DNA of 64,000 nt from Ignavibacteriota bacterium (GTDB taxonomy: Bacteria > Bacteroidota > Ignavibacteria > UBA10030 > UBA6906): contig CAWDEM010000004.1 of the NCBI GenBank assembly GCA_963801355.1, forward strand, positions 640,001 to 704,000, read 5' to 3'. A model generated the notes under the pieces. It had not been told where the DNA came from, did not search any database, and saw nothing but the letters and a program-made list of their open reading frames with translations. Positions 41,508-57,734 of the stretch are shown one piece after another; position 1 is the first letter of the stretch; every line of letters starts with the position of its first letter. Made by a program: the position numbers and the translations under genes.

Positions 41508-41523
41508 GGAGGATGGAATATCC

Positions 41524-42930: not shown

Positions 42931-42970
42931 CGTCACACTGAACGGCTAGGGAGCACACTCCCTGTGCAAT

Positions 42971-43012
42971 GAATCCCGGTTCCGCTCATGCGGGGCCGGG
43001 ATTCCTGCTTTT
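42971..43012 (+). terminator. Terminator hairpin ending the cytochrome operon
   Basis: gaatcccggttccgc-tcat-gcggggccgggattc (15-bp stem, 2 G-U pairs) followed by ctgctttt. Confidence 0.7.
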
Positions 43013-43029
43013 GCACTCCTGCAAAGGTT

Positions 43030-43045
43030 TTCCCAGAGATTGGAA
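43030..43045. promoter_or_regulatory. Putative enhancer-binding (UAS) palindrome, copy 2
   Basis: TTCCCA-gaga-TTGGAA, 97 bp upstream of TGGCAC. Confidence 0.55.
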
Positions 43046-43126
43046 TCCCATTGAGCGCAGAAGAGCGCAAATTCCCTCAAATCGCTATCTAATGGTCGTT
43101 TTTGCGTGTTTGTGATGGTGGACCGG

Positions 43127-43141
43127 TGGCACGCAACTTGA
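43127..43141 (+). promoter_or_regulatory. sigma54 -24/-12 promoter, copy 2
   Basis: TGGCAC-gcaac-TTGA, 36 bp before the ccmF ATG. Confidence 0.7.
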
Positions 43142-43176
43142 ACGGTATAGGGCACCCAAGCATCTGTGGAGTACCA

Positions 43177-45402
43177 ATGACTGTTCTTGCACATTATGTT
43201 CTGCTTCTTGCACTGTTGACCTCGGTGTCCTCGGCGGTACTGTATTTCCGTGCCGCCTCTACACGGGACGAAAGGTTGACCGTCCCGCGCGCACTGCTTC
43301 TCTCCAGCGTCTCACTTGTTGTTATCGCCTGCGCCATCCTGATCTTGTTGCTTATCCGGCATGATTTCAGCAATGCCTATGTGTACGGGTACAGCGATAG
43401 ATCGCTGCCGCTCCATTTTCTTCTCTCTGCGTTTTACGCAGGGCAGGAAGGGAGTTTCCTTTTCTGGACTCTCTGCTCGTCGCTCATCGCCCTCTGGTTG
43501 ATGCGGTCGCGGTCAGCTACACCAGCCGTGCTCACGGTCTACCTGTTCGTGAACTCGATGCTCCTGCTCCTCGTGTTTGCGAAAACCCCTTTCCACTCGA
43601 TCTGGGATGCGTACCCCGGCGTGCCGGCGGGCCAGATACCCGCGGACGGCCACGGCCTCAATCCGCTGCTGCAGAACTTCTGGATGGTCATCCATCCTCC
43701 CGTCCTGTTTCTGGGTTTTGCTCTGATGGGTGTGCCATTCTGCCAGGCCGTCGCAGCACTCTGGACACGGCAGTATGACGCATTTGCCCGGGACGGATTG
43801 GGGTGGGTGTTGACGGGTGCCTTCGTGCTGGGACTGGGCATCATGCTCGGCGCCTATTGGGCATACGGTGTGCTGGGCTGGGGCGGCTACTGGGGGTGGG
43901 ACCCTGTTGAGAACTCCTCACTGATCCCATGGCTGACGGCCATTGCTCTCGTGCATACGCTGCTTGCACAGCGGAGGACCGGCAAGTACCGCCGGACGAA
44001 CTTCTTCCTTGCCATTGTCACGTTCTTTCTTGTCATCTACAGCACATTTCTGACCCGGAGCGGGATCCTGGGCGATGCTTCGGTGCATTCGTTCTCCGAT
44101 CCGGGCGCATCGGTGTATGTCCTGCTCCTCATCTTTCTTGCATTGATCGCGGTCATGGGCATCGCCGTCATGGTCCTGCGCATGCGCGACCTGGCACCGC
44201 CACACGCCGGCACGGGATGGTTGACGCGTGAGATTCTGCTCGGTGCCGGAGCCATCGCGCTCCTGCTCTGCGCGGTGGTGATTCTCTTCGGCACAAGCCT
44301 TCCGATATTCTCCACTACCCGTGTCGAAACCTCTTTCTACGACATCACGAATCTGCCGGTCGGCATCCTTTTCGGATTGCTCATCGGCATCAGTCTGTAC
44401 ACGCAGTGGGAGGAGCAGGACATCCGCTTCACGATCCAGAAATCGTGGAAGGCTCTCCTCGCGGCGCTCCTCATCACCGCCGTACTCGTGGCGGCGGGGA
44501 TGCGGGACCCTCTGACGAGTGCAATGGTATGCACGGCGATTTTTGCGCTCCTTGTCAATATCGACATCGGGGCAAGGGGACTCCGCGGCGGCATACTGCT
44601 GCTTGGCGGCAAGCTGGCCCACATCGGTATTGCGCTGTTCTTGATCGGTGTGGTCAGCACCGGCGTGTACGATGAAACAGCACACGTCGGCTTGCCCCAG
44701 CACGAACCCGTGCAGGTGCTCGGACATACACTCTCCTACGACGGATACACTGTCCGCCCTGACGGCAAGTACGAATTTCGCGTCACAGCCACCGAAGGAA
44801 CACGGACATTTACTATTCTTCCGGTGATGTTTGAAGCACCCCAGCAAGGGATCATGCGGAATCCCGACATTGTCTCGTCGCTGACGTCGGACTTCTATCT
44901 GTCGCCGGTTTCTCTGGAGCCCGCCGAAGGCGGGACGGTGCCCGAAGAGCACGAACTGGCGAAGGGGGCCACAATCGTGCACGATAATGCCCGGGTGAAG
45001 TTTGTCCGGTTTGATATGGGCCCGGACAGGGGGGGAATGGGCGCACACGGCTCAACCGTGGCCATTGCAGCGGTGCTGGAAGTGGAGCGTGGCAAAGCCC
45101 GCGAGACATTATTCCCCGCCCTCGCACAGCGCGAGACGGGCGAAACCGACTACCGGCCTGCCATGTCGAAGCTGCTCGGGACAGAGGTGCGCCTGTTGAA
45201 GGTCAACGTGGGGATGGGTGATGCATCACCTTCGAAGATTGTCGTGGGATTTCAACGCGCGCATGCCCCACCGGCCCGGCCTGAGACATTGATGGTCGAA
45301 GCGAGTGTCAAGCCCTTCATCATTCTGTTGTGGGGAGGGACGTTGGTCATGATGGCAGGATTTGTCCTGGCAATCATCAAACGTATGAGGGAGGCAGCAT
45401 GA
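43177..45402 (+). CDS. ccmF: Cytochrome c heme lyase, CcmF/NrfE family
   Basis: GQEGSFLFW, GLNPLLQ..MVIHPP, WGGYWGWDPVENSS WWD motif, FLTRSG..SVHSF. Confidence 0.93.
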   Translation: MTVLAHYVLLLALLTSVSSAVLYFRAASTRDERLTVPRALLLSSVSLVVIACAILILLLIRHDFSNAYVYGYSDRSLPLHFLLSAFYAGQEGSFLFWTLCSSLIALWLMRSRSATPAVLTVYLFVNSMLLLLVFAKTPFHSIWDAYPGVPAGQIPADGHGLNPLLQNFWMVIHPPVLFLGFALMGVPFCQAVAALWTRQYDAFARDGLGWVLTGAFVLGLGIMLGAYWAYGVLGWGGYWGWDPVENSSLIPWLTAIALVHTLLAQRRTGKYRRTNFFLAIVTFFLVIYSTFLTRSGILGDASVHSFSDPGASVYVLLLIFLALIAVMGIAVMVLRMRDLAPPHAGTGWLTREILLGAGAIALLLCAVVILFGTSLPIFSTTRVETSFYDITNLPVGILFGLLIGISLYTQWEEQDIRFTIQKSWKALLAALLITAVLVAAGMRDPLTSAMVCTAIFALLVNIDIGARGLRGGILLLGGKLAHIGIALFLIGVVSTGVYDETAHVGLPQHEPVQVLGHTLSYDGYTVRPDGKYEFRVTATEGTRTFTILPVMFEAPQQGIMRNPDIVSSLTSDFYLSPVSLEPAEGGTVPEEHELAKGATIVHDNARVKFVRFDMGPDRGGMGAHGSTVAIAAVLEVERGKARETLFPALAQRETGETDYRPAMSKLLGTEVRLLKVNVGMGDASPSKIVVGFQRAHAPPARPETLMVEASVKPFIILLWGGTLVMMAGFVLAIIKRMREAA

Positions 45403-46744: not shown

Positions 46745-48079
46745 GTGTCTATGGATACAACAAAGGACGGTCCCGAGAACACAAGCGATCAAAGTCATTC
46801 CACTGAAGCCCATTTGATCTACGGCCGCATGGATGATCCCCGGTGGGACTACAGTCATCATTTGTTGCCGCCCATATCCGCCTCAGCGACGTACCGCCTC
46901 GACAGTGCACAGCGGGGGGCGCAGGGATTCACGGAATTCGCGCACACGACGGACGAGGTGGATGTGACACGCAAAGTGCCCATCTACATTTACGACCGTC
47001 TCGGCGAGCCGAACAAGGACATGCTCGAAGAGAATCTCGCGTATGCAGAGGGTGGTGACATCGCGGTCACGTTTGCCAGCGGGATGGCGGCAATTTCGGG
47101 GGTGCTGGGCATTCTCACCGGCTCCGGCAGCGAAGTGCTGGCCCACAAGGTGCTGTACGGCTGCACCTATTCGCTGCTGACGAACTGGTACCCGCGCCTC
47201 AAGATCGGCGTGCAGTTTGTCGATTTCAGTGATGCCGCGGAAGTGGCTGCAGCGATTACAAAACACACGCGTGTACTGTACATGGAATCGCCGGTGAATC
47301 CCACCATGCGGCTCGTGGATCTCAAGGCGATTGCCGACGTTGCAGCCCGCGTCAATGCCGGCCGCGATCCCAAGGATCGGGTGTACACCGTTGTGGACAG
47401 CACATTTGCGACGCCCTTCTGCCAGCGTCCGATCGCTCTCGGCATCGATTTTGTCGTTCACTCCCTGACAAAAGGGATCGGAGGATTCGGCACGGATATC
47501 GGGGGAGCTGTGGTCGGGCCCCGGTGGAGCCACGACCAGTTGTTGTTGTTCCGGAAGGATTTTGGCGGCATTCTCTCGTCAAAGTCGGCCTGGCCCGTGC
47601 TGGTGGTGGGACTCCCTTCGCTTGCGGTGAGGATGCGGCAAATGCAGGCGACGGCGGAGCGCGTTGCCGAATTTCTTGAAACCCGTCCGGAAGTTGAGCG
47701 TGTGCTATACCCGGGGCTGGCGTCGTTCCCCCAGGCCGAGCTTGCCCGGCGGCAGATGCGGGACTTCGAAGGGAATTTCGCGCCGGGTTCCATGATCTAT
47801 TTCGTCATGAAAGGCGCCGGTCCCCAGGACGCGTTGAAGCGCGCCGAACGATTCATCAATACCCTTGCACAGGAAGCGTACTGCGTGACGCTGGCAGTCA
47901 GCCTCGGCAATATCCGCACGTTGATCGAGCATCCCGCGTCGATGACCCACTCGGCAATTCCCGCTGAAATGCAAGCAGCCAAAGGCCTGGATCCGGGCGG
48001 GGTCCGCCTGGCCATCGGTCTGGAGAAACCGGAAGATATCATCAAAGATCTTGAACATGTATTGAACCGCACCCGGTGA
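46745..48079 (+). CDS. Methionine gamma-lyase-like PLP enzyme (Cys/Met metabolism family)
   Basis: YIYDRLG, FASGMAAI, LYGCTY (MGL-type Cys), ESPVNP, HSLTK, LAVSLG..TLIEHPASMTH. Confidence 0.8.
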   Translation: MSMDTTKDGPENTSDQSHSTEAHLIYGRMDDPRWDYSHHLLPPISASATYRLDSAQRGAQGFTEFAHTTDEVDVTRKVPIYIYDRLGEPNKDMLEENLAYAEGGDIAVTFASGMAAISGVLGILTGSGSEVLAHKVLYGCTYSLLTNWYPRLKIGVQFVDFSDAAEVAAAITKHTRVLYMESPVNPTMRLVDLKAIADVAARVNAGRDPKDRVYTVVDSTFATPFCQRPIALGIDFVVHSLTKGIGGFGTDIGGAVVGPRWSHDQLLLFRKDFGGILSSKSAWPVLVVGLPSLAVRMRQMQATAERVAEFLETRPEVERVLYPGLASFPQAELARRQMRDFEGNFAPGSMIYFVMKGAGPQDALKRAERFINTLAQEAYCVTLAVSLGNIRTLIEHPASMTHSAIPAEMQAAKGLDPGGVRLAIGLEKPEDIIKDLEHVLNRTR

Positions 48080-48135
48080 GGCACAGTCCGCCGGGTGGTG
48101 TATGAACAACCCAAGCCCAGGAAGGAGAATCGCTG

Positions 48136-48426
48136 ATGGCCAAAGGTAAAGTGACTTTTGACATCGAAACCTGCAAGGGATGTGAACTCTGCATTGAAGC
48201 ATGTCCCCAGGAGAGTCTCGCACTCTCCCCGAAAATCAACGCTCAGGGTTACCATTATGCAGTGCTGGTAAAAGACAACTGTACGGGGTGCACGAATTGT
48301 GCGCTTGTGTGTCCCGATGCCGTCATCACGGTGTACCGTGAAAAGAAGAAGGGGAAGACCCCTATTGCGCGGATCACCAACGTGACGCAGAACATCACCG
48401 TGACGATTGACGACGAAAGGAAATAG
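48136..48426 (+). CDS. 2-oxoacid:ferredoxin oxidoreductase delta (2x[4Fe-4S]) subunit
   Basis: CKGCELCIEACP, CTGCTNCALVCP. Confidence 0.9.
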   Translation: MAKGKVTFDIETCKGCELCIEACPQESLALSPKINAQGYHYAVLVKDNCTGCTNCALVCPDAVITVYREKKKGKTPIARITNVTQNITVTIDDERK

Positions 48427-48428
48427 CC

Positions 48429-49517
48429 GTGGGAGACATTCGACTCATGAAAGGCAATGAGGCGCTGGCGGAGGCGGCGATTCGCGCAGGCTGCCAGGCC
48501 TACTTTGGATATCCCATTACCCCGCAGTCCGAAGTGCTGGAATATCTCGCAGGCGAAGGGCGCAAACGCGGCATGATCGTCTTGCAGGCCGAAAGCGAAG
48601 TAGCTTCGATCAATATGGTATTCGGCGGAGCAGGTGCTGGTGCGCGCGTGATGACCTCCTCCTCAAGTCCCGGAATCAGCCTGATGCAGGAAGGCATATC
48701 GTACATTGCCTGCGCGGAGCTGCCGTGTCTGATCGTGAACGTCAATCGTGGCGGCCCCGGTCTCGGCACCATACAACCGTCGCAGGGTGACTACTTCCAG
48801 TCGGTGAAAGGAGGCGGCCATGGCGACTACCGTCTCATCGTCCTCGCGCCGTCCGGCGTGCAGGAGATGGCGGATTTTGTGTACGATGCGTTTGATCTTG
48901 CCGACACATACCGGACACCGGTGCTGATTCTTGCTGATGGGGCCCTCGGACAGATGATGGAGAAAGTGGAATTCCGTGACTACGTTCCTGCCGAGCACAT
49001 TCCGCCGAAGCCCTGGGCGACCACGGGAAAGGGCAAGGAGCATCCCCGGACGTTCATCACGACGCTCCACATGCAGCCCGAACAGATGGAAGAAGTGAAC
49101 CGGCACCTGCAGGCAAAATTCCAGAAGATTGCTGAACGTGAGGTCCGGTACGAACTCGTGAACACGGAAGACGCGGAGTATGTGATTGTTGCTTATGGCC
49201 TTGCCGCGCGGATTGCCCATCGCGCGGTGCAGCTTCTGCGTAAGGAAGGAATCCGGGTAGGTCTGCTGCGGCCGATCACCTTGTGGCCCTATCCCTCGGC
49301 GGTGTTGCGGACACTGGCGCCGGGGTTGCAGGGAGTGCTCGTGGTCGAAATGAATTCAGGGCAAATGGTGGAGGATGTCCGTCTCGCGGTCGAAGGGCGC
49401 ACACCGGTGCATTTCTACGGGCGGATGGGAGGCATCATCCCCGCCCCGGATGAAGTCGTGAGTGCATTGCGCTCGATGATCCACACCGAGGTTCCACAAG
49501 CGGCGGAGGCGCACTGA
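48429..49517 (+). CDS. vorB: 2-oxoacid:ferredoxin oxidoreductase alpha subunit (VorB-type)
   Basis: MKGNEA, YFGYPITPQSE, QAESE, TSSSSPG, RGGPGLG. Confidence 0.88.
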   Translation: MGDIRLMKGNEALAEAAIRAGCQAYFGYPITPQSEVLEYLAGEGRKRGMIVLQAESEVASINMVFGGAGAGARVMTSSSSPGISLMQEGISYIACAELPCLIVNVNRGGPGLGTIQPSQGDYFQSVKGGGHGDYRLIVLAPSGVQEMADFVYDAFDLADTYRTPVLILADGALGQMMEKVEFRDYVPAEHIPPKPWATTGKGKEHPRTFITTLHMQPEQMEEVNRHLQAKFQKIAEREVRYELVNTEDAEYVIVAYGLAARIAHRAVQLLRKEGIRVGLLRPITLWPYPSAVLRTLAPGLQGVLVVEMNSGQMVEDVRLAVEGRTPVHFYGRMGGIIPAPDEVVSALRSMIHTEVPQAAEAH

Positions 49518-49518
49518 C

Positions 49519-50304
49519 ATGTCTCAGGAAACCACACAGGATCTGACGGTGGAAGAGCAGGAACTGCTCGAGTGCGTCTACGCAAAGCCGCATACCCTCA
49601 CCGATACACGGTTCCATTACTGCCCCGGCTGCGGCCACAGCGTTATCCACCGGGTATTGATGGAGGTGATTGAGGAACTGGACATACAGGACAAGACCAT
49701 CGGTATCGCGCCGGTGGGTTGTTCGGTCTTCGCCTACAACTACATGAATATCGACATGCAGGGCACCGCGCACGGAAGAGCGAGCGCTGTCGCAACGGCG
49801 GTCAAACGCATTCTCCCGGACAGATACGTGTTCTCCTATCAGGGAGACGGCGATCTTGCGGCGATCGGTACCGCGGAGACCATCCATACTTGTAATCGCG
49901 GCGAGAACATCATGATCGTGTTCATCAACAATGCGATCTATGGCATGACCGGCGGGCAGATGGCTCCCACAACGCTGATCGGCATGAAGACGTCGACTTC
50001 ACCCACCGGCCGCAACGTGGAGACCGGCGGCTATCCGATAAGGATGACGGAGATCGTGGCAACGTTCCCGGGTGTGTACTACGTGACGCGCCAGTCCGTG
50101 CACACGCCCAATGCCGTCCGGCAACTCAAGAAGGCCTTCACCAAGGGCTTTCAATATCAGAAGGAAAAGAAAGGCACATGTTTCATTGAAGTAGTCTCCA
50201 ATTGTCCCTCCGGGTGGAAGATGACCCCGCTCCAGGCAAATGAGTGGCTGGTGGAGAACATGTTCCCCTTCTATCCGCCCGGCGACATCAAAGTCCCGAA
50301 ATGA
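49519..50304 (+). CDS. 2-oxoacid:ferredoxin oxidoreductase beta (TPP-binding) subunit
   Basis: YCPGCGH, PVGC, HGRA, QGDGD, NNAIYGMTGGQ, CP. Confidence 0.92.
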   Translation: MSQETTQDLTVEEQELLECVYAKPHTLTDTRFHYCPGCGHSVIHRVLMEVIEELDIQDKTIGIAPVGCSVFAYNYMNIDMQGTAHGRASAVATAVKRILPDRYVFSYQGDGDLAAIGTAETIHTCNRGENIMIVFINNAIYGMTGGQMAPTTLIGMKTSTSPTGRNVETGGYPIRMTEIVATFPGVYYVTRQSVHTPNAVRQLKKAFTKGFQYQKEKKGTCFIEVVSNCPSGWKMTPLQANEWLVENMFPFYPPGDIKVPK

Positions 50305-50343
50305 ACTGAACGAATCGCAGACTGTCGACAAAAGGATGCACTT

Positions 50344-50895
50344 ATGACTCATGAACTCTTAGCCGCCGGCTTTGGCGGACAGGGTGTGCTCTCGTTGGGA
50401 GCGACCCTGGCGTATGCCGGCATGATCGAGAACAAGGAAATCACCTGGATGCCTTCGTACGGTCCGGAAATGCGCGGTGGGACGGCGAATTGCATCATCA
50501 TTGTCTCGGACGAACGGATCAGTTCGCCTATCGTCACGACCTTTGATACGGTCATCGCGCTGAACCAGCCGTCGCTCGAAAAATTTGAAAAGGCCGTGAA
50601 GCCCGGCGGGCTGTTGATTTATGACTCGACGAGCATGCTGACGCCGCCGCGCCGCACGGATATCCAGGTGGTCCCGATCCCCGCGGGGGATGAGGCCTTG
50701 AAGCTGAAGAACACCAAAGTGCTGAACATGATCGTTCTGGGCGCTTTTCTCGAGAGAACCCATGTCGTGGAAATCGATGCGATCATGAAAGCCCTGCGCA
50801 AGGCCCTGCCCGAACGGTACCATAACCTGTTACCGCTGAACGAGCAGGCATTGCGGCGGGGAATGGAACTCGCCGGCCAACCGGCAATGGTCTGA
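50344..50895 (+). CDS. 2-oxoacid:ferredoxin oxidoreductase gamma subunit
   Basis: AGFGGQG, PSYGPEMRGG. Confidence 0.92.
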   Translation: MTHELLAAGFGGQGVLSLGATLAYAGMIENKEITWMPSYGPEMRGGTANCIIIVSDERISSPIVTTFDTVIALNQPSLEKFEKAVKPGGLLIYDSTSMLTPPRRTDIQVVPIPAGDEALKLKNTKVLNMIVLGAFLERTHVVEIDAIMKALRKALPERYHNLLPLNEQALRRGMELAGQPAMV

Positions 50896-50904
50896 CGGGG
50901 CAGA

Positions 50905-51192
50905 ATGCCCGCAGCACTGGACGTTCAACAACGCGAGGAGCTTATGGAGCGGACGTGTGTGCATTCGTGCAAAGGTCTGTGCAATGCGCTGGACGTGATG
51001 GAACGCCGGGAGCAGGAAGCCATCGCGTTGTACCGTCAGTACGCCGCGGAGTGTGACTACCCCGACGTGAAGGAATTGCTTGATGCGTTGATCGCCGATC
51101 GCGAGCGGGGATTGCACCTGCTGCGGGAGAAACGGGAGACCCTGACCGCGAAATTCGCGGTCACCGACCGGATCAATGACAGCTTCGCCTGA
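50905..51192 (+). CDS. Small ferritin-like/rubrerythrin-half helical protein
   Basis: E.EAIALY...DVKELLDALIAD pattern; fills the gap in the operon. Confidence 0.55.
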   Translation: MPAALDVQQREELMERTCVHSCKGLCNALDVMERREQEAIALYRQYAAECDYPDVKELLDALIADRERGLHLLREKRETLTAKFAVTDRINDSFA

Positions 51193-51225
51193 CCAACTTC
51201 AAGGACAAGGAGTGCCGGAACCCCT

Positions 51226-52347
51226 ATGAGCAAATACACAATTGCCTGGCTGCCCGGGGATGGAATCGGAAAAGACGTGATGGACGCCACGCGCCTGGTC
51301 CTCGACCGGATCAAGCTCGACGCGGAATATGTGCACGGGGATATTGGCTGGGAATTCTGGTGCAAGGAGGGGGACGCCCTTCCCCAGCGGACAATCGATC
51401 TCTTGCGGCGCGTCAACGCCGCGATGTTTGGTGCCATCACCTCGAAACCCGTCAAGGCTGCCGAAGCGGAACTGATTCCCGAGCTGAAGGGGAAGGGGTT
51501 GGTGTACCGCTCGCCCATTGTGCGGATGCGGCAGATGTTCGACCTGTATATCTGTCTCCGCCCGTGCAAAGCCTATCCGGCCAACCCTCTGAACTTCAAA
51601 GACGGCATTGACCTGGTGGTGTTCAGAGAGAACACGGAAGACCTCTATGCCGGCGTTGAGTTCTTTCCGGTGCCCAAGGAGCTTTCGGATATGCTGTCGA
51701 AGCTTTCGAAGCCGTTCACTGCCTTCCGCGATTTGCAGGGCGATCAGTTCGCCATCTCCTGCAAGGTCAACACCAAGCGGGGATCGGAACGGATTGTCCG
51801 GGCGGCATTTGAATTCGCCAGGAAACACAACCGGCGGAAAGTGACGATCGTACACAAAGCAAATGTGGTGCGTGCAACTGACGGCCTTTTTCTCGAGGAG
51901 GCCCGGCATGTGGCGCGTGAGTATCCCGGGATACAGTTCGATGAAGCCAACGTAGATGCAATCTGCATGTGGCTGATGAAGAACCCCTTCAGCTACGACG
52001 TTCTTGTGGCCCCGAACCTCTACGGCGATATTATCTCCGACCTTGCCGCCCAGATGGTGGGCGGGCTCGGCTTCGGATGCTCCGGGAATATCGGACACCG
52101 GCTCGCCGTGTTCGAACCCTCTCACGGTTCGGCACCAAAATATGCAGGCCAGAACAAGGTGAACCCGATTGCGACAATTCTCGCCGCAAAAATGATGCTC
52201 GACTGGCTCGGTGAGACGGAAAAAGGCGCGCAGATCGAAAAGGCGACGGCTGCGGTGATCAGAGAAGGGAAGATCCGCACCTACGATATGGGAGGATCGC
52301 ACTCGACGACGGATATTGCCGAAGCGATAGCCGCACATCTATGCTGA
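51226..52347 (+). CDS. Beta-decarboxylating dehydrogenase (isocitrate/isopropylmalate/homoisocitrate family)
   Basis: PGDGIG, RENTEDLY, VHKANV, NLYGDIISD, FEPSHGSAP. Confidence 0.92.
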   Translation: MSKYTIAWLPGDGIGKDVMDATRLVLDRIKLDAEYVHGDIGWEFWCKEGDALPQRTIDLLRRVNAAMFGAITSKPVKAAEAELIPELKGKGLVYRSPIVRMRQMFDLYICLRPCKAYPANPLNFKDGIDLVVFRENTEDLYAGVEFFPVPKELSDMLSKLSKPFTAFRDLQGDQFAISCKVNTKRGSERIVRAAFEFARKHNRRKVTIVHKANVVRATDGLFLEEARHVAREYPGIQFDEANVDAICMWLMKNPFSYDVLVAPNLYGDIISDLAAQMVGGLGFGCSGNIGHRLAVFEPSHGSAPKYAGQNKVNPIATILAAKMMLDWLGETEKGAQIEKATAAVIREGKIRTYDMGGSHSTTDIAEAIAAHLC

Positions 52348-53252
52348 CACCACACATCGTCCTGCATGAAGTCGGTCTGCGGGATGGACTGCAGATGGAA
52401 ACTGCATCCGTCCCGACCGCGCAAAAACTCCAATGGGTCCGTGCTCTCGCCGCGGCCGGGATGGACGTCATCCAGGTCGGATCGTTCGTGCATCCTGTCA
52501 AGGTGCCGCAAATGGCGGACACCGATCAGGTGTTCCGTGAGCTTACAGCGCCGGGGGCGAGGCCGCCGGGGGTCGTGCTTTCGGGTCTTGTGCTGAACGA
52601 GAAGGGGCTCGAGCGCGGCATGGCATGTGGCGTGGACATGTTCTGCATGGGAGTTTCTGCAAGTGAGACACACAGCCGCAAGAATACCGGCATGCCGACG
52701 GCCGAAGCCACCGATCGAATCATCGGCATGGCCGTGTCAGCATTGAAAGCCGGAAAGGCCATCCAGGTTTCCGTGCAGTCCGCTTTCGGCTGTGGGTATG
52801 AAGGCGCAGTTCCTCCGGCCCGCGCAGTCGCGATTGTGCGGCGGTACCTCGAGGCCGGCCTGACAAGCATCAGTCTTGCAGATACGGCCGGCCATGCTAC
52901 ACCCGCGATGGTGGAGAATTTGTTCGAGGCCATCCGGGCCATGGACGACACGATCGAGTTGGCCTGTCATTTTCACAACACGTACGGCATGGCGATCGCC
53001 AACTGCTCTGCGGCGCTCCGGGTGGGTGTCCAGTCGGTTGAATCTTCGATTGCCGGCCTGGGTGGATGCCCGTATACGAAAATTGCGGGCGGCAATGTCT
53101 GCACAGAGGACTTCGTGCACATGCTCCAGCGGATGAACCTCCGGAAAGACGTCAATCTCGACGGCCTGATAGCTGTAGCCCGTGAGGTTGCTGCTTTCTT
53201 CAATCGGGATATGCCCGGTATGGTATACAAAACAGGCCCCATTCCTCAGTAG
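52341..53252 (+). CDS. HMG-CoA-lyase family (DRE-TIM) acyl-CoA lyase
   Basis: EVGLRDGLQ, LADTAG, HFHNTYG, GLGGCPY, GNVCTED. Confidence 0.9.
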   Translation: MLTPHIVLHEVGLRDGLQMETASVPTAQKLQWVRALAAAGMDVIQVGSFVHPVKVPQMADTDQVFRELTAPGARPPGVVLSGLVLNEKGLERGMACGVDMFCMGVSASETHSRKNTGMPTAEATDRIIGMAVSALKAGKAIQVSVQSAFGCGYEGAVPPARAVAIVRRYLEAGLTSISLADTAGHATPAMVENLFEAIRAMDDTIELACHFHNTYGMAIANCSAALRVGVQSVESSIAGLGGCPYTKIAGGNVCTEDFVHMLQRMNLRKDVNLDGLIAVAREVAAFFNRDMPGMVYKTGPIPQ

Positions 53253-53271
53253 CCTCAAGCGCGACACGGAC

Positions 53272-54480
53272 ATGACATCATCTGCAGCATCGCTTCTTTC
53301 GGGAATCAGAGTTCTTGACATGACAAACGTGCTTTCGGGCCCGTTTGCCACGTTGCACCTCGCCCTGCTCGGCGCGGAGGTCATCAAGGTGGAAAATCCG
53401 GCGGACGGTGATCTGGCGCGCAAACTCGGATGTGTTCCGGAATACAACCGGCGGCTCATGGGAACGAGTTTTCTTGCCCAGAATGCCAACAAGAAGTCGC
53501 TCACCCTGAATCTCAAAGCGCCTGAGGGGAAGGAGATTTTCAAGAAGCTGGCCGCGACCGCGGATGTCGTGGTGGAGAATTTCCGTCCGGACGTTATGGG
53601 TCGCCTGGGTCTTTCGTATGAAGTGCTGCGTGCCATCAATCCGAGGCTCATCTACTGCGGTATTTCCGGTTTCGGCCAATCCGGCCCGGACGCTTTGAAG
53701 CCCGCCTACGATCAGATCATCCAGGGGCTGAGCGGGGAGATGGCCATCAATGGCGATGAGCAACTGAGTCCGTTGCGTGCGGGTTTTCCCGTGTGCGACA
53801 CTGTCGGCGGATTGAATGCTGCGTTCGCCATCATGGCGGCTCTCTACTGGCGAGAGCGTTCGGGGGAAGGCCAATGGATTGATGTGGCACTCCTGGATTC
53901 CATCATGCCATTGATGGGCTGGGTGGTGGCGAATCTGCTGATCGGCGGCCAGCAACCGGTTCTCATGGGAAATGACAATTTTACCGCCGCTCCCTCCGGG
54001 TCGTTCCGCACCAGGGATGGAAGCATCAATATTGCTGCAAACAAACAGGAGCAGTGGGAAGCCGTCACCGATGTCCTCGGCGTGCCGGAACTCAGGAACG
54101 ACCCGAGGTTCTCCGAGCGTGATACCAGGAAGAAGAACCGGAAGGCACTCACACTGTTGCTGGAGGAAAAACTCCAGGAGCGGGAAACTGGGTACTGGGT
54201 GGAAGTGTTGAACAATCACGATGTGCCGTCGGGCGCCATTCTGAGCCTGGACGCCGCGCTGCACCAGCCGCAGGTGACCCACCGGAACACATTCAGCACG
54301 GTCGATGTTGAAGGAATAGGCTCAATTCCGTTGTTCAATTTGACCGCCAAGTTTGAGAAGACCCCTGGGACTGTCACAGCTCCACCGCCAGCGCTCGGCG
54401 CGCACACCGCGGAAGTGCTCAAAGAACTCGGATATGAAGATGCGCAGATTACAGCATTGAAAGAAAAGCGTGTGGTGTGA
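53272..54480 (+). CDS. Family III CoA-transferase (CaiB/BaiF)
   Basis: L.GIRVLD, GAEVIKVE, NKKSLTLNLK, ENFRP, AYDQIIQ catalytic Asp. Confidence 0.93.
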   Translation: MTSSAASLLSGIRVLDMTNVLSGPFATLHLALLGAEVIKVENPADGDLARKLGCVPEYNRRLMGTSFLAQNANKKSLTLNLKAPEGKEIFKKLAATADVVVENFRPDVMGRLGLSYEVLRAINPRLIYCGISGFGQSGPDALKPAYDQIIQGLSGEMAINGDEQLSPLRAGFPVCDTVGGLNAAFAIMAALYWRERSGEGQWIDVALLDSIMPLMGWVVANLLIGGQQPVLMGNDNFTAAPSGSFRTRDGSINIAANKQEQWEAVTDVLGVPELRNDPRFSERDTRKKNRKALTLLLEEKLQERETGYWVEVLNNHDVPSGAILSLDAALHQPQVTHRNTFSTVDVEGIGSIPLFNLTAKFEKTPGTVTAPPPALGAHTAEVLKELGYEDAQITALKEKRVV

Positions 54481-54503
54481 ACCCGGAACAGGAAAGGCAT
54501 CTC

Positions 54504-55793
54504 ATGGGAATGACAGTCGTCGAAAAGATTCTTGCGCGTGCAAGCGGACAGGCTGTTGTGAAGGCAGGCGACGTGCTCGAACCGAAGGTGGATCTGGCGA
54601 TGTCGCACGAAAATGCCGCGCTGGTGGTGAATCAGTTCCTGGAAATTTTCAAGGATACCGGCCGTGAGGCACGTGTCTGGGATCCGTCTCGAGTGGCGAT
54701 CATCTTTGATCACCGGGTTCCCGCGGAATCACCGAAGACGGCCACCAACCAGAAGAAGGTCCGTGAATTTGTAGCGCGCCACATGATCAGCAAGTTCCAT
54801 GACATCCGCGGTGATCTCGGCGGTATTTGTCACCAGATTCTCCCCGAAAGCGGTTATGTCCGTCCCGGCGCGGTGGTGGTAGGTACCGATTCCCACACCA
54901 CGAGCCATGGCGCTCTTGGCGCGTTCTCGTTCGGCATCGGTGCGACGGAGATGGCCAGTGTCTGGACGCTGGGGTATGCGGTGAACGTTGAAGTGCCGGC
55001 GACTATCAAGGTGGTGATTCACGGCAGATTTCCGCGGATGGTAGGACCGAAGGATCTGATCCTTCATCTGATCGGGAAACTGACCTCCCAGGGGGCGAAC
55101 TTCCGTGTCATTGAGTTCCACGGCGAGACTATCCGGGCAATGCCCACATCCGGCAGACTGGTGATCTGCAATATGTCTGTCGAGGCAGGGGCCACGTCGG
55201 GCATCGTGCCGGCCGATGAAGAGACGGTGCAGTATCTCCGGGAGGAATCGGGAGTGACCGATCCCCTTGACCTTGTGCAACCTGATGAGGACGCGGTCTA
55301 CGCGCAGACCCTTACGATTGATGTCTCGAAGCTCGAGCCGCAAGTTGCCTGTCCGCATTCCGTGGACAATGTGAAGCCCCTCGGTGCCGTGGTGGGGACA
55401 AGGGTAGATCAGGTGGTGATTGGTTCATGTACGAACGGCAGGCTCGACGACATCGAGGTTGCGGCGTCGCTTTTGCGGGGGAAGAAGGTTGCCCGGAACA
55501 CCCGTATGCTGGTTTTTCCGGCGTCGGGCCGGATTTATCAGCGGGCGCTCGAACGCGGTTATATCGCCGATATCATGCGCGCAGGTGCAGTGGTGATGAA
55601 CCCGGGCTGCGGTCCCTGCCTGGGCGTGCATGAGGGTGCGCTGGGAGACGGTGAGGTTGCGCTGTCGACCACGAACCGGAATTTTAAAGGCCGGATGGGA
55701 AATCCCACGGCGGACGTGTATCTTTGTTCGCCCGCTGTCGCCGCTGCTTCAGCCGTGGCGGGAATGATCGCCGATCCGAGAAAAGGAGTGTAA
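54504..55793 (+). CDS. Isopropylmalate/homoaconitate-type hydratase, large subunit
   Basis: FDHRVP, GICHQ, DSHT, IGSCTNGR, CGPCLG, STTNRNF.GRMG. Confidence 0.92.
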   Translation: MGMTVVEKILARASGQAVVKAGDVLEPKVDLAMSHENAALVVNQFLEIFKDTGREARVWDPSRVAIIFDHRVPAESPKTATNQKKVREFVARHMISKFHDIRGDLGGICHQILPESGYVRPGAVVVGTDSHTTSHGALGAFSFGIGATEMASVWTLGYAVNVEVPATIKVVIHGRFPRMVGPKDLILHLIGKLTSQGANFRVIEFHGETIRAMPTSGRLVICNMSVEAGATSGIVPADEETVQYLREESGVTDPLDLVQPDEDAVYAQTLTIDVSKLEPQVACPHSVDNVKPLGAVVGTRVDQVVIGSCTNGRLDDIEVAASLLRGKKVARNTRMLVFPASGRIYQRALERGYIADIMRAGAVVMNPGCGPCLGVHEGALGDGEVALSTTNRNFKGRMGNPTADVYLCSPAVAAASAVAGMIADPRKGV

Positions 55794-55798
55794 ACACC

Positions 55799-56296
55799 AT
55801 GGCACAAGTGGTCTATGTCGTCGGCGATGACATTTCAACGGATGTCATTTATCCGGGCCGGTACATGGCAACGGTGCTTCCGACGGAAACACCGCAGTTC
55901 GCGTTTGTTGACGATGCGGAGTTCAATGGCAGACTCAGGAACAGACAGATTCCCGCCGGCAGTATCATTGTTGCGGGAAGTAACTTCGGCTGCGGTTCCT
56001 CCCGCGAACAGGCTGTGTCCACGCTCAAGGGGCATGAGTTGATCATCGTCGCACGCAGTGTCGCGCGGATATTCATGCAGAACGCCATCAACCTGGGATT
56101 GCGTCTCGTTGTCTCACCAGGGATCACCGCGGCTGCAGGAGATGACCTGGTCATCGAGAGCAATCGCGTGGTGAACACAACCAGCGGAGCGGCCTTCCCG
56201 CTCGAGCCACTGCCGCGTGCGCGTCAGGTCATCGTCGACTCGGGAGGCCTGATTGCCTATACGAGAAAACGGATGCTCGAGCGTCCGGCTCTCTGA
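55799..56296 (+). CDS. Isopropylmalate/homoaconitate-type hydratase, small subunit
   Basis: DDISTDVIYPGRY, NFGCGSSREQA, ARIF..NAIN.G. Confidence 0.9.
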   Translation: MAQVVYVVGDDISTDVIYPGRYMATVLPTETPQFAFVDDAEFNGRLRNRQIPAGSIIVAGSNFGCGSSREQAVSTLKGHELIIVARSVARIFMQNAINLGLRLVVSPGITAAAGDDLVIESNRVVNTTSGAAFPLEPLPRARQVIVDSGGLIAYTRKRMLERPAL

Positions 56297-56342: not shown

Positions 56343-57734
56343 ATGGAAGGCGCGATTGCGAATATCGATGTCAGCCTGTTAAAGAAGTACGACAGACCCG
56401 GCCCACGCTACACCAGCTATCCGACCGCTCCGCTGTTCAGCCCTGCATTCACGGCGGACGATTTTCGCCGGGAAATTGCAGCGACGAACACCCCGGACGC
56501 CTCTCCGGATCTTTCACTCTACTTTCATTTTCCCTTCTGCGATACGCTCTGCTATTTTTGCGGATGCACGATGCTCGTGACGCGGGACCGCAAACGCATT
56601 GAGGAATACAACCGTTATCTGCAGAAGGAAATGGCTCTTGTCGCGCCGCTGATCGCTCCGCACAGGCGGGCCACACAGCTGCACTGGGGCGGCGGCACTC
56701 CGTCGCATCTCTCGCCCGACCAGATCGTCTCCATCGCGGGCGCAATCCGGTCCGCATTTGCGATCGCCGCGGACGCCGAGACAAGTGTGGAAATCGATCC
56801 GCGGGAACTCTCCCTCCCGCACCTGGAAGCACTCCGGGAGGCAGGTTTCAACCGCATGAGCATGGGGATTCAGGATTTCGATCCTCACGTGCAGGCGGCG
56901 GTGAACCGTGTGCAACCACCGGAGACTTCCCGGCAGGTCTATACCTGGGCGCGTGAGCTCGGCTTCACGAGCATCAACCTCGATCTGATGTACGGACTGC
57001 CATTCCAGACGCTGGCATCGTTTGAGCGGACGGTTCGCGACATCATTGCCTACGGCGCCGACCGGATTGCCGTGTTCAACTACGCCCATGTCCCCTGGCT
57101 GAAACCCCATCAGAAACTCATTCGTCCCGAAGACCTCCCGTCACCGGAACTGAAACTCGATATGCTCAAAATGACCATCGAGAAGCTGACGCAGAACGGG
57201 TACGAGTACATCGGCATGGACCATTTTGCCAAGCCTGACGACGAACTTTCCCGCGCGCGGGCGGCCCGGACACTTTACAGGAATTTTCAGGGTTACTCGA
57301 CTCGGGCGGGGGCCGATCTGTACGGTTTCGGGATGTCGTCCATCAGCCATTTCCGGAATATCTATGCACAGAACGCCAAGAATCTCCCGGAGTATTACCG
57401 GGCACTCGATGCCAGACATCATGCAACGCACCTCGGCTATCGCATGACCGGCGACGATCACCTCAGGAAGTTCGTGATCATGCGCTTGATGTGTGACCTC
57501 GAGCTGGACTTTGCGACGGTCGAACGGAAATTCTCTATTGATTTCCCTGCGGTGTTTGCCACTGCGCTCGAAGGGCTCAAGCCCCTCGCGTCGGATGGCC
57601 TGGTGGAGCTTACCGATTCGGGTGTCCGGGTCGTCGGTCCCGGCCGCCTGCTACTGCGTAATATTGCGATGTGCTTCGATGCGTATCTGGAACGAATGAC
57701 GCGCGAGAAGCCGATCTTCTCACGAACAGTGTGA
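56343..57734 (+). CDS. hemN: Oxygen-independent coproporphyrinogen III oxidase
   Basis: GPRYTSYPTA, CDTLCYFC radical-SAM motif, GGGTP, IGMDHF, RNFQGY. Confidence 0.95.
   Translation: MEGAIANIDVSLLKKYDRPGPRYTSYPTAPLFSPAFTADDFRREIAATNTPDASPDLSLYFHFPFCDTLCYFCGCTMLVTRDRKRIEEYNRYLQKEMALVAPLIAPHRRATQLHWGGGTPSHLSPDQIVSIAGAIRSAFAIAADAETSVEIDPRELSLPHLEALREAGFNRMSMGIQDFDPHVQAAVNRVQPPETSRQVYTWARELGFTSINLDLMYGLPFQTLASFERTVRDIIAYGADRIAVFNYAHVPWLKPHQKLIRPEDLPSPELKLDMLKMTIEKLTQNGYEYIGMDHFAKPDDELSRARAARTLYRNFQGYSTRAGADLYGFGMSSISHFRNIYAQNAKNLPEYYRALDARHHATHLGYRMTGDDHLRKFVIMRLMCDLELDFATVERKFSIDFPAVFATALEGLKPLASDGLVELTDSGVRVVGPGRLLLRNIAMCFDAYLERMTREKPIFSRTV

Follow-up and report, generated by a model that had tools for sequence, protein, structure and literature searches.

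A widely conserved and undescribed five-gene module of an Ignavibacteriota bacterium, with a possible function in 2-oxoadipate shortening during lysine breakdown

Within the stretch of Ignavibacteriota DNA analysed here (64,000 nucleotides, referred to as the window), a string of genes raises the question of which pathway would employ a LeuCD-like isomerase and a LeuB-like dehydrogenase together with an acyl-CoA lyase and a CoA-transferase. According to the ORF list of the window, the string consists of eleven co-oriented and tightly packed ORFs on the + strand (46745-56296), whose intergenic distances amount to 9-56 bp where the ORFs do not slightly overlap. The outer ORF coordinates of all eleven genes agree with a first-pass annotation (46745 to 56296, +), and its assignment of these ORFs to MGL, OFOR, dehydrogenase, lyase, CoA-transferase and LeuCD families was confirmed by Pfam and NCBIfam models. 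No gene for LeuA, CimA or homocitrate synthase is present within the cluster and, as that annotation had pointed out, the lyase and the CoA-transferase stand in the position of the synthase. Terminator-like sites are not enriched in the cluster (13 versus 10.5 expected from shuffles) and all of them lie within coding sequence.

The downstream part of the string constitutes a five-gene block, which is headed by a beta-decarboxylating dehydrogenase of the LeuB/IDH family (DH; 51226..52347, +; PF00180, Iso_dh, 299 bits), a putative homoisocitrate dehydrogenase acting in the direction of reductive carboxylation. Its best NCBIfam match is the homoisocitrate dehydrogenase AksF2 (339 bits, below the cut-off of 540), leuB scores 199.8 (below 353), and its best PDB matches are NAD-dependent IDH and the homoisocitrate dehydrogenase (HICDH) of Thermus. 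The next gene (52341..53252, +) encodes an acyl-CoA lyase of the HMGL family (PF00682, 149 bits), proposed to be a homocitryl-CoA lyase, which passes the HMG-CoA lyase subfamily model NF004283 (280.8 > 246) and matches HMG-CoA lyases best in the PDB. It is followed by a family III CoA-transferase (CoAT; ORF 53182..54480, +, likely start ATG 53272; PF02515, CoA_transf_3, 401 bits), which occurs as a single copy in the genome and whose best NCBIfam match, succinate-glutarate CoA-transferase, remains below its cut-off (295.7 < 750). The LeuC-like protein (ORF 54477..55793, +, likely start ATG 54504 or 54510; Aconitase; PRK00402, 551 > 385) exceeds the cut-off of the hacA_fam model TIGR01343 (512.5 > 385.7) but misses those of HacA_Meth (473.7 < 550) and LEU2 (447 < 611), and would represent the large subunit of an archaeal-type (homo)aconitase/isopropylmalate (IPM) isomerase. 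Its small subunit is probably provided by the LeuD-like protein (ORF 55724..56296, +, likely start ATG 55799; Aconitase_C). The real starts of CoAT, LeuC and LeuD thus likely lie downstream of their ORF openings.

Upstream of this block, the string opens with a PLP enzyme resembling methionine gamma-lyase (MGL; 46745..48079, +, likely start ATG 46751; PF01053, Cys_Met_Meta_PP, 317.7 bits). MGL equivalogs are its best NCBIfam matches at 318 bits, below their cut-offs of 549-666, but its top 18 PDB matches are all MGLs, with which the YGCT motif and the PLP-lysine SLTKG align. Then follow the four subunits of a 2-oxoacid:ferredoxin oxidoreductase (OFOR): delta, a 2x[4Fe-4S] ferredoxin-like protein (48136..48426, +; Fer4_7 and other Fer4 families), alpha (48429..49517, +; POR_N and PFOR_II), the TPP-binding beta (49519..50304, +; PF02775, TPP_enzyme_C, 74.4 bits) and gamma (50344..50895, +; PF01558, POR, 129.4 bits). 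Alpha passes the 'VorB' subfamily model NF005507 (545.7 > 399), whereas delta best matches OorD/OGOR delta below the cut-off and beta the 2-oxoglutarate:ferredoxin oxidoreductase beta subunit (121 bits, cut-off 364). The small ORF after gamma (50905..51192, +), previously described as ferritin-like, encodes a 95-aa product that matches no Pfam or NCBIfam family; by tblastn, some 20 related loci carry a homologue of 32-89% identity behind OFOR gamma.

Inspection of the host genome separates the block from canonical metabolism. A complete ilvD-ilvB-ilvN-leuA-leuC-leuD-leuB-ilvC operon, with genes above the NCBIfam cut-offs, is located elsewhere, along with citrate synthase and two paralogous IDHs with the S-x-N motif, so that the block serves neither leucine synthesis nor as a substitute for the TCA cycle. 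In line with this, the block proteins form a distinct paralogous set: they are 25-38% identical to the leu and IDH counterparts of the genome, and 25-33% to the canonical Leu set. The sole other HMGL-like protein of the genome is the true LeuA. Neither a threonine dehydratase (IlvA; none among seven PALP proteins) nor CimA was found in this 100% complete genome, and an ilv/leu operon lacking both implies that some source of 2-oxobutyrate is needed.

Conservation across genomes reveals what belongs together. Of 80 loci retrieved with the lyase, 41 contain the full set DH-lyase-CoAT-LeuC-LeuD; among the 49 that are long enough to hold five genes, the number is 37. This recurrence places the arrangement far from chance. 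Lyase and CoAT are adjacent in 69 of the 80. The block-bearing MAGs are labelled Ignavibacteriota/Bacteroidota, Acidobacteriota, Gemmatimonadales, Calditrichia, Armatimonadetes and Chrysiogenales. The five-gene module is hence widely conserved across phyla, as the synteny check suggested by the first-pass annotation bears out, and it is undescribed: a literature search found no publication describing its route. The MGL-like gene adjoins the block in only 14 of the 80 loci, all from close relatives (MGL 73-94% identical), and is probably a peripheral, lineage-specific neighbour of the core module. OFOR genes do so in 20 of the 80, in two arrangements, and also occur at an actinomycetotal type-B locus (L148).

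A second set of 80 loci, fetched with a lyase of the ICL/PEP-mutase family, demonstrates a non-orthologous replacement. In 34 of them, spanning more than ten phyla, this CoA-independent lyase sits between DH and LeuC while lyase and CoAT are absent. The dehydrogenase is 71-79% identical to that of the window in 30 of these loci and 66-71% to a paralogous DH' in four; LeuC is 68-76% identical to the window protein in 32 and 42-43% in two. A lyase without need of CoA in the same slot fits cleavage of the LeuCD product, and thus a catabolic direction. Other neighbours of the block are of catabolic type: L075 features a Glu/Leu-type dehydrogenase with an aminotransferase, the block-bearing locus L060 of an Ignavibacterium album MAG an ammonia-lyase for aromatic amino acids, and L057 a permease for amino acids.

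Further contexts involve lysine. Variants of the module share operons with L-lysine 6-transaminase (LAT), P6C dehydrogenase-type aldehyde dehydrogenases (ALDHs) and class III aminotransferases in MAGs of the class Ignavibacteria, of Verrucomicrobiota and of Planctomycetota. In genome G188 (locus L093), the order is ALDH, LAT, DH (77%), ICL-like lyase, orf122, LeuC (74%) and LeuD (63%), with LAT (TIGR03251, 645.9 > 520.8) 18 bp from DH. An Opitutaceae MAG (L146) features P6C dehydrogenase (NF050084, 756.4 > 730), a class III aminotransferase, DH (76%), the ICL-like lyase and LeuC, and two Planctomycetota loci (L160, L168) carry ALDH, an aminotransferase of the L146 family, DH', the ICL-like lyase and LeuCD. 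ALDH-LAT-CoAT (71%) adjoins the lyase itself in L062 and in G120 (L095, on a MAG contig shared with L072). The window, L093, L146, L160 and L168 share identical DH motifs, GAITSKP and SPIVRMRQ, and the LeuD loop PGR[YF]MATVLP, invariant in 25 of 25 orthologues, is identical between the window and L093. Sets of orthologues with identical motifs in the lysine-gene operons of three phyla point to 2-oxoadipate and homocitrate. LAT is present in all eight genomes with the module or its halves among 50 sampled; since 43 of these 50 genomes of the class carry LAT whether or not they bear the module, its presence alone is uninformative. Adjacency of LAT/ALDH is rare in the lyase set (2/80); in the ICL set it amounts to 5/80 for ALDH and 8/80 for LAT-like aminotransferases, several of them on the opposite strand. 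It is the MGL-like gene, and not LAT, that neighbours the window's own block, and its enzyme would yield 2-oxobutyrate.

From these gene neighbours we infer the substrates of a route to which we assign a probability of about 0.5: the module would convert 2-oxoadipate, CO2 and NADH via homoisocitrate, homocitrate and homocitryl-CoA to 2-oxoglutarate and acetyl-CoA in the breakdown of lysine. It would thereby shorten a 2-oxoacid by running the chemistry of chain elongation, namely the upper alpha-aminoadipate pathway, in reverse. Lysine may reach 2-oxoadipate via 2-aminoadipate by means of LAT (62%) and the adjacent ALDH (73%) encoded elsewhere in the genome (C8:2399028-2402187), in which a 2-aminoadipate aminotransferase was not identified. 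DH would then carboxylate 2-oxoadipate reductively to homoisocitrate, presumably at the expense of NAD(P)H, and LeuCD would isomerise the latter to homocitrate. Subsequently, CoAT might transfer CoA to homocitrate from, e.g., succinyl-CoA (or acetyl-CoA), and the lyase would cleave the resulting homocitryl-CoA to 2-oxoglutarate and acetyl-CoA, keeping the thioester. The likely task of the cluster OFOR is to oxidise one of the 2-oxoacids of the route; if this were 2-oxoglutarate, succinyl-CoA as CoA donor would be regenerated with release of CO2. The case for 2-oxoglutarate is weakened by the other OFORs of the genome, which encodes two POR_N proteins besides the cluster alpha subunit, one of PFOR type (1194 aa) and one of KorA type (619 aa).

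The first-pass annotation had instead favoured an interconversion of 2-oxobutyrate with pyruvate and acetyl-CoA via 3-methylmalate, (R)-citramalate and (R)-citramalyl-CoA, fed from methionine by MGL and linked to propionyl-CoA by OFOR. We regard this rival reading as unlikely. It would account for the MGL-like gene in the tight string and supply the 2-oxobutyrate that the genome needs, and Chloroflexus aurantiacus reportedly pairs a succinyl-CoA:(R)-citramalate CoA-transferase of family III with an HMGL-type (R)-citramalyl-CoA lyase. Residues are also consistent with it. DH features a hydrophobic Ile-Val at the position of Asn115-Val116 of E. coli IDH and a Val in place of the homoisocitrate-recognising Arg85 of Thermus HICDH; LeuD has Ala where the homoaconitase small subunit of Methanocaldococcus jannaschii has Arg, and matches MJ1277, the small subunit of IPM/citramalate isomerase (3vba, 98.5 bits), better than the homoaconitase subunit MJ1271 (2pkp, 84.2 bits). 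However, the Arg rules for HICDH and homoaconitase failed their controls: the true LeuD of the genome reads FLKV, and a homoaconitase-linked DH paralogue reads SPIVSMRQ. The latter belongs to the group of paralogues closest to DH (17 genomes, 52-57% identity), which adjoins a fused homoaconitase in the three loci read, all with SPIV[SG][ML]RQ; the homoaconitase was scored in L094 only (TIGR00139, 877 > 530). Moreover, the MGL link is limited to close relatives and OFOR genes separate MGL from the block, whereas the motif-identical orthologues accompany lysine-catabolic genes in three phyla. The isoleucine gap, too, is peculiar to the window genome: block-positive G036, G052 and G152 encode two or three LeuA_dimer proteins (LeuA and CimA), while G144 has none and its sole HMGL-like protein is the lyase, so that provision of 2-oxobutyrate for isoleucine is not a general role.

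Broad specificity or another 2-oxoacid appears improbable, e.g. conversion of leucine-derived 2-oxoisocaproate to 2-oxoisovalerate and acetyl-CoA via isopropylmalyl-CoA, with a VorB-type OFOR taking the branched product. The alpha subunit model, the Glu/Leu/Phe/Val-type dehydrogenase upstream in L075, the hydrophobic DH and LeuD residues, which suit an alkyl substituent, and the differing entry enzymes (MGL here, LAT elsewhere) would agree with it, but subfamily names such as VorB do not amount to tested functions, neither a branched-chain aminotransferase nor any leucine-specific gene was seen to recur beside the block, and near-invariant loops across phyla suggest a single defined substrate. 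A CO2-fixing operation, also raised by the first-pass annotation, in which OFOR carboxylates an acyl-CoA, the lyase adds acetyl-CoA as a synthase and the transferase passes the thioester on, seems decidedly improbable. Every step is reversible in principle, OFOR adjoins the block repeatedly and the genome lacks CimA and IlvA; yet the CoA-independent variant in many genomes and the LAT/P6C dehydrogenase operons fit degradation, G144 retains the block without any LeuA-type synthase, and the LysA of the DAP pathway in the genome means that 2-oxoadipate is not required for lysine synthesis. It is hardly credible, finally, that an ordinary HMG-CoA lyase of leucine or ketone-body metabolism lies by chance beside spare leuBCD paralogues of no shared pathway. 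The orthologues are named 'hydroxymethylglutaryl-CoA lyase' in the source annotation and NF004283 is passed, but gene order is kept across phyla, coding regions overlap, lyase and CoAT are exchanged for another lyase in the same position, and no methylcrotonyl-CoA carboxylase or hydratase genes occur among the recurring neighbours.

The proposed lysine route shares its intermediates with the upper alpha-aminoadipate pathway of lysine biosynthesis in Thermus and fungi, and the enzyme families of two of three steps (LeuCD/HacAB isomerase and LeuB/IDH dehydrogenase), Thermus HICDH being among the best PDB matches of DH. It differs by CoAT and an HMGL-family (elsewhere ICL-family) lyase instead of homocitrate synthase, by its presumably degradative direction, and by a DH and a LeuC-like protein that miss the NCBIfam homoisocitrate dehydrogenase and HacA equivalog cut-offs, besides Val for Arg85. 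Likewise, elongation by LeuABCD or CimA-LeuCD-LeuB has the isomerase-dehydrogenase logic and protein families in common with the module, which lacks a synthase and likely runs in the opposite direction. The Chloroflexus pair, likened here by its description, is said to cleave a 3-hydroxy-3-carboxyacyl-CoA to a 2-oxoacid and acetyl-CoA in the same manner, though with citramalate as substrate and no linked LeuCD or dehydrogenase. In the reductive TCA cycle, 2-oxoglutarate is converted via isocitrate, citrate and citryl-CoA to oxaloacetate and acetyl-CoA, in Hydrogenobacter by citryl-CoA synthetase and lyase. The likeness of the module to this carboxylating arm, noted early on, holds for the order of reactions, from reductive carboxylation through isomerisation of the aconitase type and activation with CoA to cleavage by a lyase, as well as for the adjoining OFOR. 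In contrast, the proposed substrate is one carbon longer, activation would proceed by CoA transfer and not by ATP, the lyase is an HMGL-family enzyme rather than one of the citrate-synthase/CitE type, and normal citrate synthase and IDHs are encoded in the genome. In bacteria, 2-oxoadipate is known to be oxidised to glutaryl-CoA by 2-oxoadipate dehydrogenase or, in Pseudomonas putida, to follow a route to 2-hydroxyglutarate. Entry from lysine via 2-aminoadipate would be the same, and the Pseudomonas route also ends at 2-oxoglutarate, but the carboxylation, isomerisation and retro-Claisen/aldol cleavage to acetyl-CoA proposed here are entirely different chemistry.

In 25 of the 80 ICL loci, the ICL-like lyase (about 80% identical) stands alone. 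In many of these, mostly from MAGs labelled Aminicenantes, it is adjoined by a lactate permease (16/25) and sometimes by PEPCK (7/25); its activity may hence be more general.

The eleven plus-strand ORFs at 46745-56296 of the window have the boundaries given in the first-pass annotation and follow one another closely, separated by 9-56 bp or overlapping slightly. The gene string is uniform in base composition, and its terminator-like sites, which lie within coding sequence, do not exceed the frequency in shuffles (13 found, 10.5 expected). The enzyme families assigned at that earlier stage were borne out by Pfam and NCBIfam. The Cys/Met-PLP enzyme scores 318 bits, below the NCBIfam equivalog cut-offs (549-666), though models of methionine gamma-lyase (MGL) remain its best matches; its 18 best PDB matches are all MGLs, and the PLP lysine as well as YGCT, which we take to be the MGL-type active-site Cys motif, align. 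Adjacent genes encode the delta, alpha, beta and gamma subunits of a four-subunit 2-oxoacid:ferredoxin oxidoreductase (OFOR) with POR_N plus PFOR_II, TPP_enzyme_C, POR and Fer4 domains, the alpha subfamily model 'VorB' being the sole substrate-type model passed. A plus-strand ORF of 95 aa (50905-51192) belongs to no Pfam or NCBIfam family, is always located 3' of the OFOR gamma gene in relatives possessing an OFOR of the window type, and may represent a fifth OFOR subunit or a maturation factor.

The 3' part of the string (51226-56296, plus strand) encodes a LeuB/IDH-family dehydrogenase (DH), a lyase, a family III CoA-transferase (CoAT) and LeuC- and LeuD-like subunits, LeuD being the final ORF; likely true starts are 53272 for CoAT, 54504 or 54510 for LeuC and 55799 for LeuD. 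DH is a member of Iso_dh whose best-scoring models are those of homoisocitrate dehydrogenase, even though it stays below their equivalog cut-offs (AksF2_Meth, 339.4 < 540; AksF_Meth, 301.3 < 500) and below that of LeuB (TIGR00169, 199.8 < 353.2). CoAT covers positions 1-366 of the 366 of PF02515 (401.4 > 23.3) and reaches no NCBIfam equivalog cut-off, the best being succinate-glutarate CoA-transferase (295.7 < 750). The LeuC-like protein passes the archaeal-type isopropylmalate (IPM) isomerase/homoaconitase subfamily models (PRK00402, 551.1 > 385; TIGR02086, 520.6 > 410; TIGR01343, 512.5 > 385.7) and falls below the equivalog cut-offs of HacA_Meth (473.7 < 550) and LEU2 (447.4 < 610.65). The lyase is HMGL-like (PF00682, 149.3 > 29), passes the HMG-CoA lyase subfamily model NF004283 (280.8 > 246) and has HMG-CoA lyases as best PDB matches (1ydo, 6nds, 2cw6). 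Its context, consisting of LeuCD, DH and CoAT, argues for a 3-hydroxy-3-substituted acyl-CoA other than HMG-CoA as the predicted substrate, and no leucine-catabolic carboxylase or hydratase was seen among the neighbours of the block in related loci. The 120 homologues listed of 7963 scored are near orthologues, either unnamed or carrying automatic 'HMG-CoA lyase' labels, which were discarded as a clue to function.

The five-gene block is conserved across phyla. In the 80 best loci (of 468 relatives) fetched with the lyase, with presence set at a minimum of 50% identity, all five genes occur in 41, and the whole block is found in 37 of the 49 loci with room for it; in the other 12 the lyase, accompanied by CoAT or not, is isolated or the order is rearranged. 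CoAT adjoins the lyase in 69/80. According to record titles, the bearers comprise Ignavibacteriota/Bacteroidota, Acidobacteriota, Gemmatimonadales, Calditrichia, Armatimonadetes, Chrysiogenales and others; one such locus (L060) stems from an Ignavibacterium album MAG. The OFOR alpha gene occurs in 20/80 of these loci, either on the same strand upstream of the block or convergent to it on the downstream side, and MGL is confined to 14/80, all close relatives, and no further widely recurring neighbour family was detected in the set. Among 201 sampled genomes of the phylum, seven carry DH orthologues at least 76% identical (the source genome G000 as well as G052, G144, G036, G188, G152 and G180) and 17 carry a paralogous group of 52-57% identity; CoAT orthologues at least 71% identical occur in only 6 of 50 genomes of the class.

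According to the first-pass annotation, ordinary leucine synthesis would follow if these were the only leuBCD genes of the organism, with a leuA elsewhere. A tblastn search of the 4.8 Mb, 100%-complete source genome with the eleven proteins, however, retrieved a second, distant set, an ilvD-ilvB-ilvN-leuA-leuC-leuD-leuB-ilvC operon at 1597.5-1607.5 kb of the same contig (C4; locus L091), every member of which passes its equivalog cut-off, including the true LeuB (491.5 bits). The possibility that the block is the sole leuBCD of the genome is thereby ruled out. Likewise, a substitute for part of the TCA cycle, consisting of citryl-CoA lyase, aconitase and isocitrate dehydrogenase (IDH), was considered and rejected: the genome encodes citrate synthase as well as a pair of IDH paralogues bearing S-x-N, and a citrate-type reading is therefore unnecessary. 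LysA is encoded as well; its match (G000:C4:327072-328319, 453 bits) contains one TGA inside the matched stretch.

A role in isoleucine supply was also considered. No threonine dehydratase was found among the seven PALP proteins of the source genome (two threonine synthases, CysK, two D-cysteine-desulfhydrase-like proteins, one TrpB-like and one unassigned protein), PF00585 finds nothing, and the only LeuA-family synthase is the true LeuA, with no citramalate synthase (CimA). LeuA_dimer proteins occur in 26 of 50 class genomes, 24 of which possess two about 3 kb apart, presumably LeuA plus CimA, and one possesses three; the source genome alone has one. MGL, OFOR and the block are hence candidates for its 2-oxobutyrate source. 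The block-positive genomes G036, G052 and G152, on the contrary, carry a second synthase, and the likewise positive G144 lacks any LeuA_dimer protein and has the lyase as its only HMGL-like protein; therefore, isoleucine supply cannot be the general role of the module. Overall, there is good support (probability roughly 0.8) for the general idea that the block works as a synthase-free, CoA-dependent and reversible module for 2-oxoacids, separate from the synthesis of leucine.

A second form of the module came to light in G180 and G188, which possess DH and LeuCD orthologues, lack lyase and CoAT, and have an isocitrate-lyase/PEP-mutase-family (ICL-like) gene between DH and LeuC. Across its 80 best loci, which span more than ten phyla, this protein is 78-85% identical, and in 34 of them it is flanked by DH and LeuC (type B). 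Here DH shares 71-79% identity with that of the window in 30 loci and 66-71% with a paralogous type (DH') in four, while LeuC shares 68-76% identity in 32 and 42-43% in two. Another 20/80 combine the ICL-like gene with LeuC in the absence of DH, and a single locus, at a contig end, has DH only. The remaining 25/80 (within L108-L165), mostly Aminicenantes-labelled MAGs, lack both DH and LeuCD; a lactate permease adjoins in 16 and PEPCK in seven, and signalling proteins occur too. These neighbours gave no clue to the substrate and weaken the inference about the enzyme, the activity of which may be broader than the module. Both systems stand in a row in an Ignavibacteria-labelled MAG (L170), in the order lyase, CoAT, a 400-aa protein with no NCBIfam match at E <= 1e-30, ICL-like, LeuC and LeuD, with no DH adjacent to that row. 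Replacement of a transferase plus acyl-CoA lyase by a CoA-independent lyase most simply means that the product of LeuCD is cleaved, and thus that the pathway is degradative. A catabolic direction therefore appears more likely than the CO2-fixing one that the first-pass annotation had offered as one of two options.

Candidate substrates emerge from genes beside the module. In G188 (L093), ALDH (aldehyde dehydrogenase), L-lysine 6-transaminase (LAT), DH, ICL-like, a 122-aa ORF, LeuC and LeuD form one operon, in which LAT passes TIGR03251 (645.9 > 520.8) and is separated from DH by 18 bp. In G120 (L095, whose MAG contig is also that of L072) as well as L062, ALDH, LAT and CoAT form one string adjoining the lyase; the DH of G120 belongs to the paralogue type and is encoded elsewhere in the genome, beside a fused homoaconitase whose L094 homologue passes TIGR00139. 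In an Opitutaceae MAG (L146), DH, ICL-like and LeuC come immediately after a piperideine-6-carboxylate dehydrogenase passing NF050084 (756.4 > 730) and an aminotransferase of class III, and in two Planctomycetota MAGs (L160, L168) DH', ICL-like and LeuCD follow an ALDH that shares 57% identity with the L093 enzyme and an aminotransferase of the L146 family. Genes for the conversion of lysine to 2-aminoadipate are therefore joined to one or the other half of the module in three phyla. Since the window, L093, L146, L160 and L168 share identical DH motifs (GAITSKP and SPIVRMRQ), and the window and L093 also agree exactly in the LeuD loop PGR[YF]MATVLP, the same substrate is likely. The source genome has LAT (62%) and ALDH (73%) adjacent on contig C8, where unrelated housekeeping genes are the only neighbours, and only matches of 29-38% identity to the L146/L160 aminotransferase, an orthologue of which was not found. 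The presence of LAT itself is uninformative, as it occurs in 43/50 genomes of the class (8/8 module-bearing, 35/42 others).

On the strength of these operons, the 2-oxoadipate/homocitrate series has about an even chance of being the carbon series of the module. The first-pass annotation had proposed a route linking propionyl-CoA, 2-oxobutyrate, 3-methylmalate, (R)-citramalate, citramalyl-CoA and pyruvate plus acetyl-CoA; its synthase-free, CoA-dependent design separate from leucine synthesis is well supported, while the 2-oxobutyrate/citramalate series appears rather improbable in view of the lysine-linked operons. Specificity residues would, under rules from the literature, favour the alkyl, citramalate-type substrate. 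The recognition segment of DH reads Ser-Pro-Ile-Val-Arg-Met-Arg, compared with Ser113-Leu-Asn115-Val-Ala-Leu-Arg119 in E. coli IDH (aligned to 1ai2-type chains), Gly-Ala-Ile-Arg85-Tyr-Leu-Arg88 in Thermus homoisocitrate dehydrogenase (HICDH; 3asj/1x0l) and Gly-Leu-Leu-Arg-Leu-Arg in LeuB of the source genome. Of the residues that we take to govern recognition, Ser113 is kept, Asn115, which the S-x-N paralogues retain, is replaced by Ile, and Val stands opposite Arg85 of HICDH. The LeuD loop, invariant in 25/25 orthologues, reads Y-M-A-T, compared with Y-L-R-T in homoaconitase and Y-L-V-Y in isomerase MJ1277 of M. jannaschii, where Arg presumably marks homoaconitase and a hydrophobic residue IPM isomerase. 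These rules failed their controls: a DH paralogue beside a TIGR00139 homoaconitase shares SPIV and likewise lacks Arg85, the true LeuD of the source genome reads F-L-K-V, in which Lys takes the place of Arg, and the loop of a Lys4-type homoaconitase, Y-T-Y-N, has no Arg. Because the rules do not transfer, the residues were given no weight.

With the 2-oxoadipate/homocitrate series, the module would be the aminoadipate pathway run backwards as a route of lysine catabolism. OFOR would convert 2-oxoglutarate to succinyl-CoA and CO2, thereby replenishing both the CoA donor and the CO2 that DH consumes, so that CO2, fixed by DH and released by OFOR, would be catalytic only, and CoA transfer would conserve the thioester. 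The net effect would be the conversion of 2-oxoadipate to acetyl-CoA and succinate while NADH yields reduced ferredoxin. A functional tie between OFOR and block is likely, because the link recurs in two arrangements and once in an actinomycetotal type-B locus (L148). The source genome has PFOR-type and KorA-type OFORs and one E1-type dehydrogenase besides, and 2-oxoadipate or 2-oxobutyrate are therefore equally possible substrates of this OFOR. MGL is best treated as a lineage-specific neighbour, the product of which may share OFOR. Since all the reactions are reversible in principle, the cassette could work in the forward direction as well, as a chain elongation that needs no synthase and is energy-neutral. 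Taken as a whole, a new and widespread lysine catabolism by a reversed aminoadipate pathway, with catalytic CO2, electron transfer from NADH to ferredoxin and a possibly reversible cassette, is a tentative proposal drawn from gene context.

If true, lysine, or another amino-acid-derived 2-oxoacid, would be broken down in many uncultured bacteria of soil and sediment, spread over more than ten phyla, by a route of which we found no description, and this would account for hundreds of genes automatically named 'HMG-CoA lyase', 'CoA transferase' or '3-isopropylmalate dehydratase/dehydrogenase'. It would also follow that the classic elongation of 2-oxoacids has a natural counterpart running in reverse, where the irreversible synthase has given way to an ICL-family lyase or to a pair of CoA-transferase and lyase, and metabolic engineers would gain a reversible, ATP-free module for C2 extension and shortening. 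In the openly accessible literature that was searched, we found no description of the gene combination or of such a lysine/2-oxoadipate/homocitrate route, nor any paper on 'homocitryl-CoA' or 'homocitrate lyase'.

Other families of the class (L094, at G096:C1:1698000-1716000, L096 and L097) harbour a cluster of the DH paralogue (52-57%) with a fused Lys4-type homoaconitase, which in L094 passes TIGR00139 (877 > 530); additional genes encode a CstA-like transporter (L094/L096), a small HD-domain ORF (L094/L097) and a PrpD-like protein (L094). G096 lacks an HMGL-like protein and possesses LysA. Fungal homocitrate isomerisation requires aconitase as well as homoaconitase (PMC3556520), and this may be why L094 has a PrpD-like gene next to its Lys4-type enzyme. 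Downstream of LeuD in the window lies a HemN-like radical SAM gene (56343-57734), and a homologue of about 468 aa is located downstream in about ten related loci. The region upstream of the string (41287-45402) encodes a multihaem cytochrome with c3/c7 and Geobacter-type motifs and a CcmF-like haem lyase, and multihaem cytochromes flank the block in L031 and L024 too.
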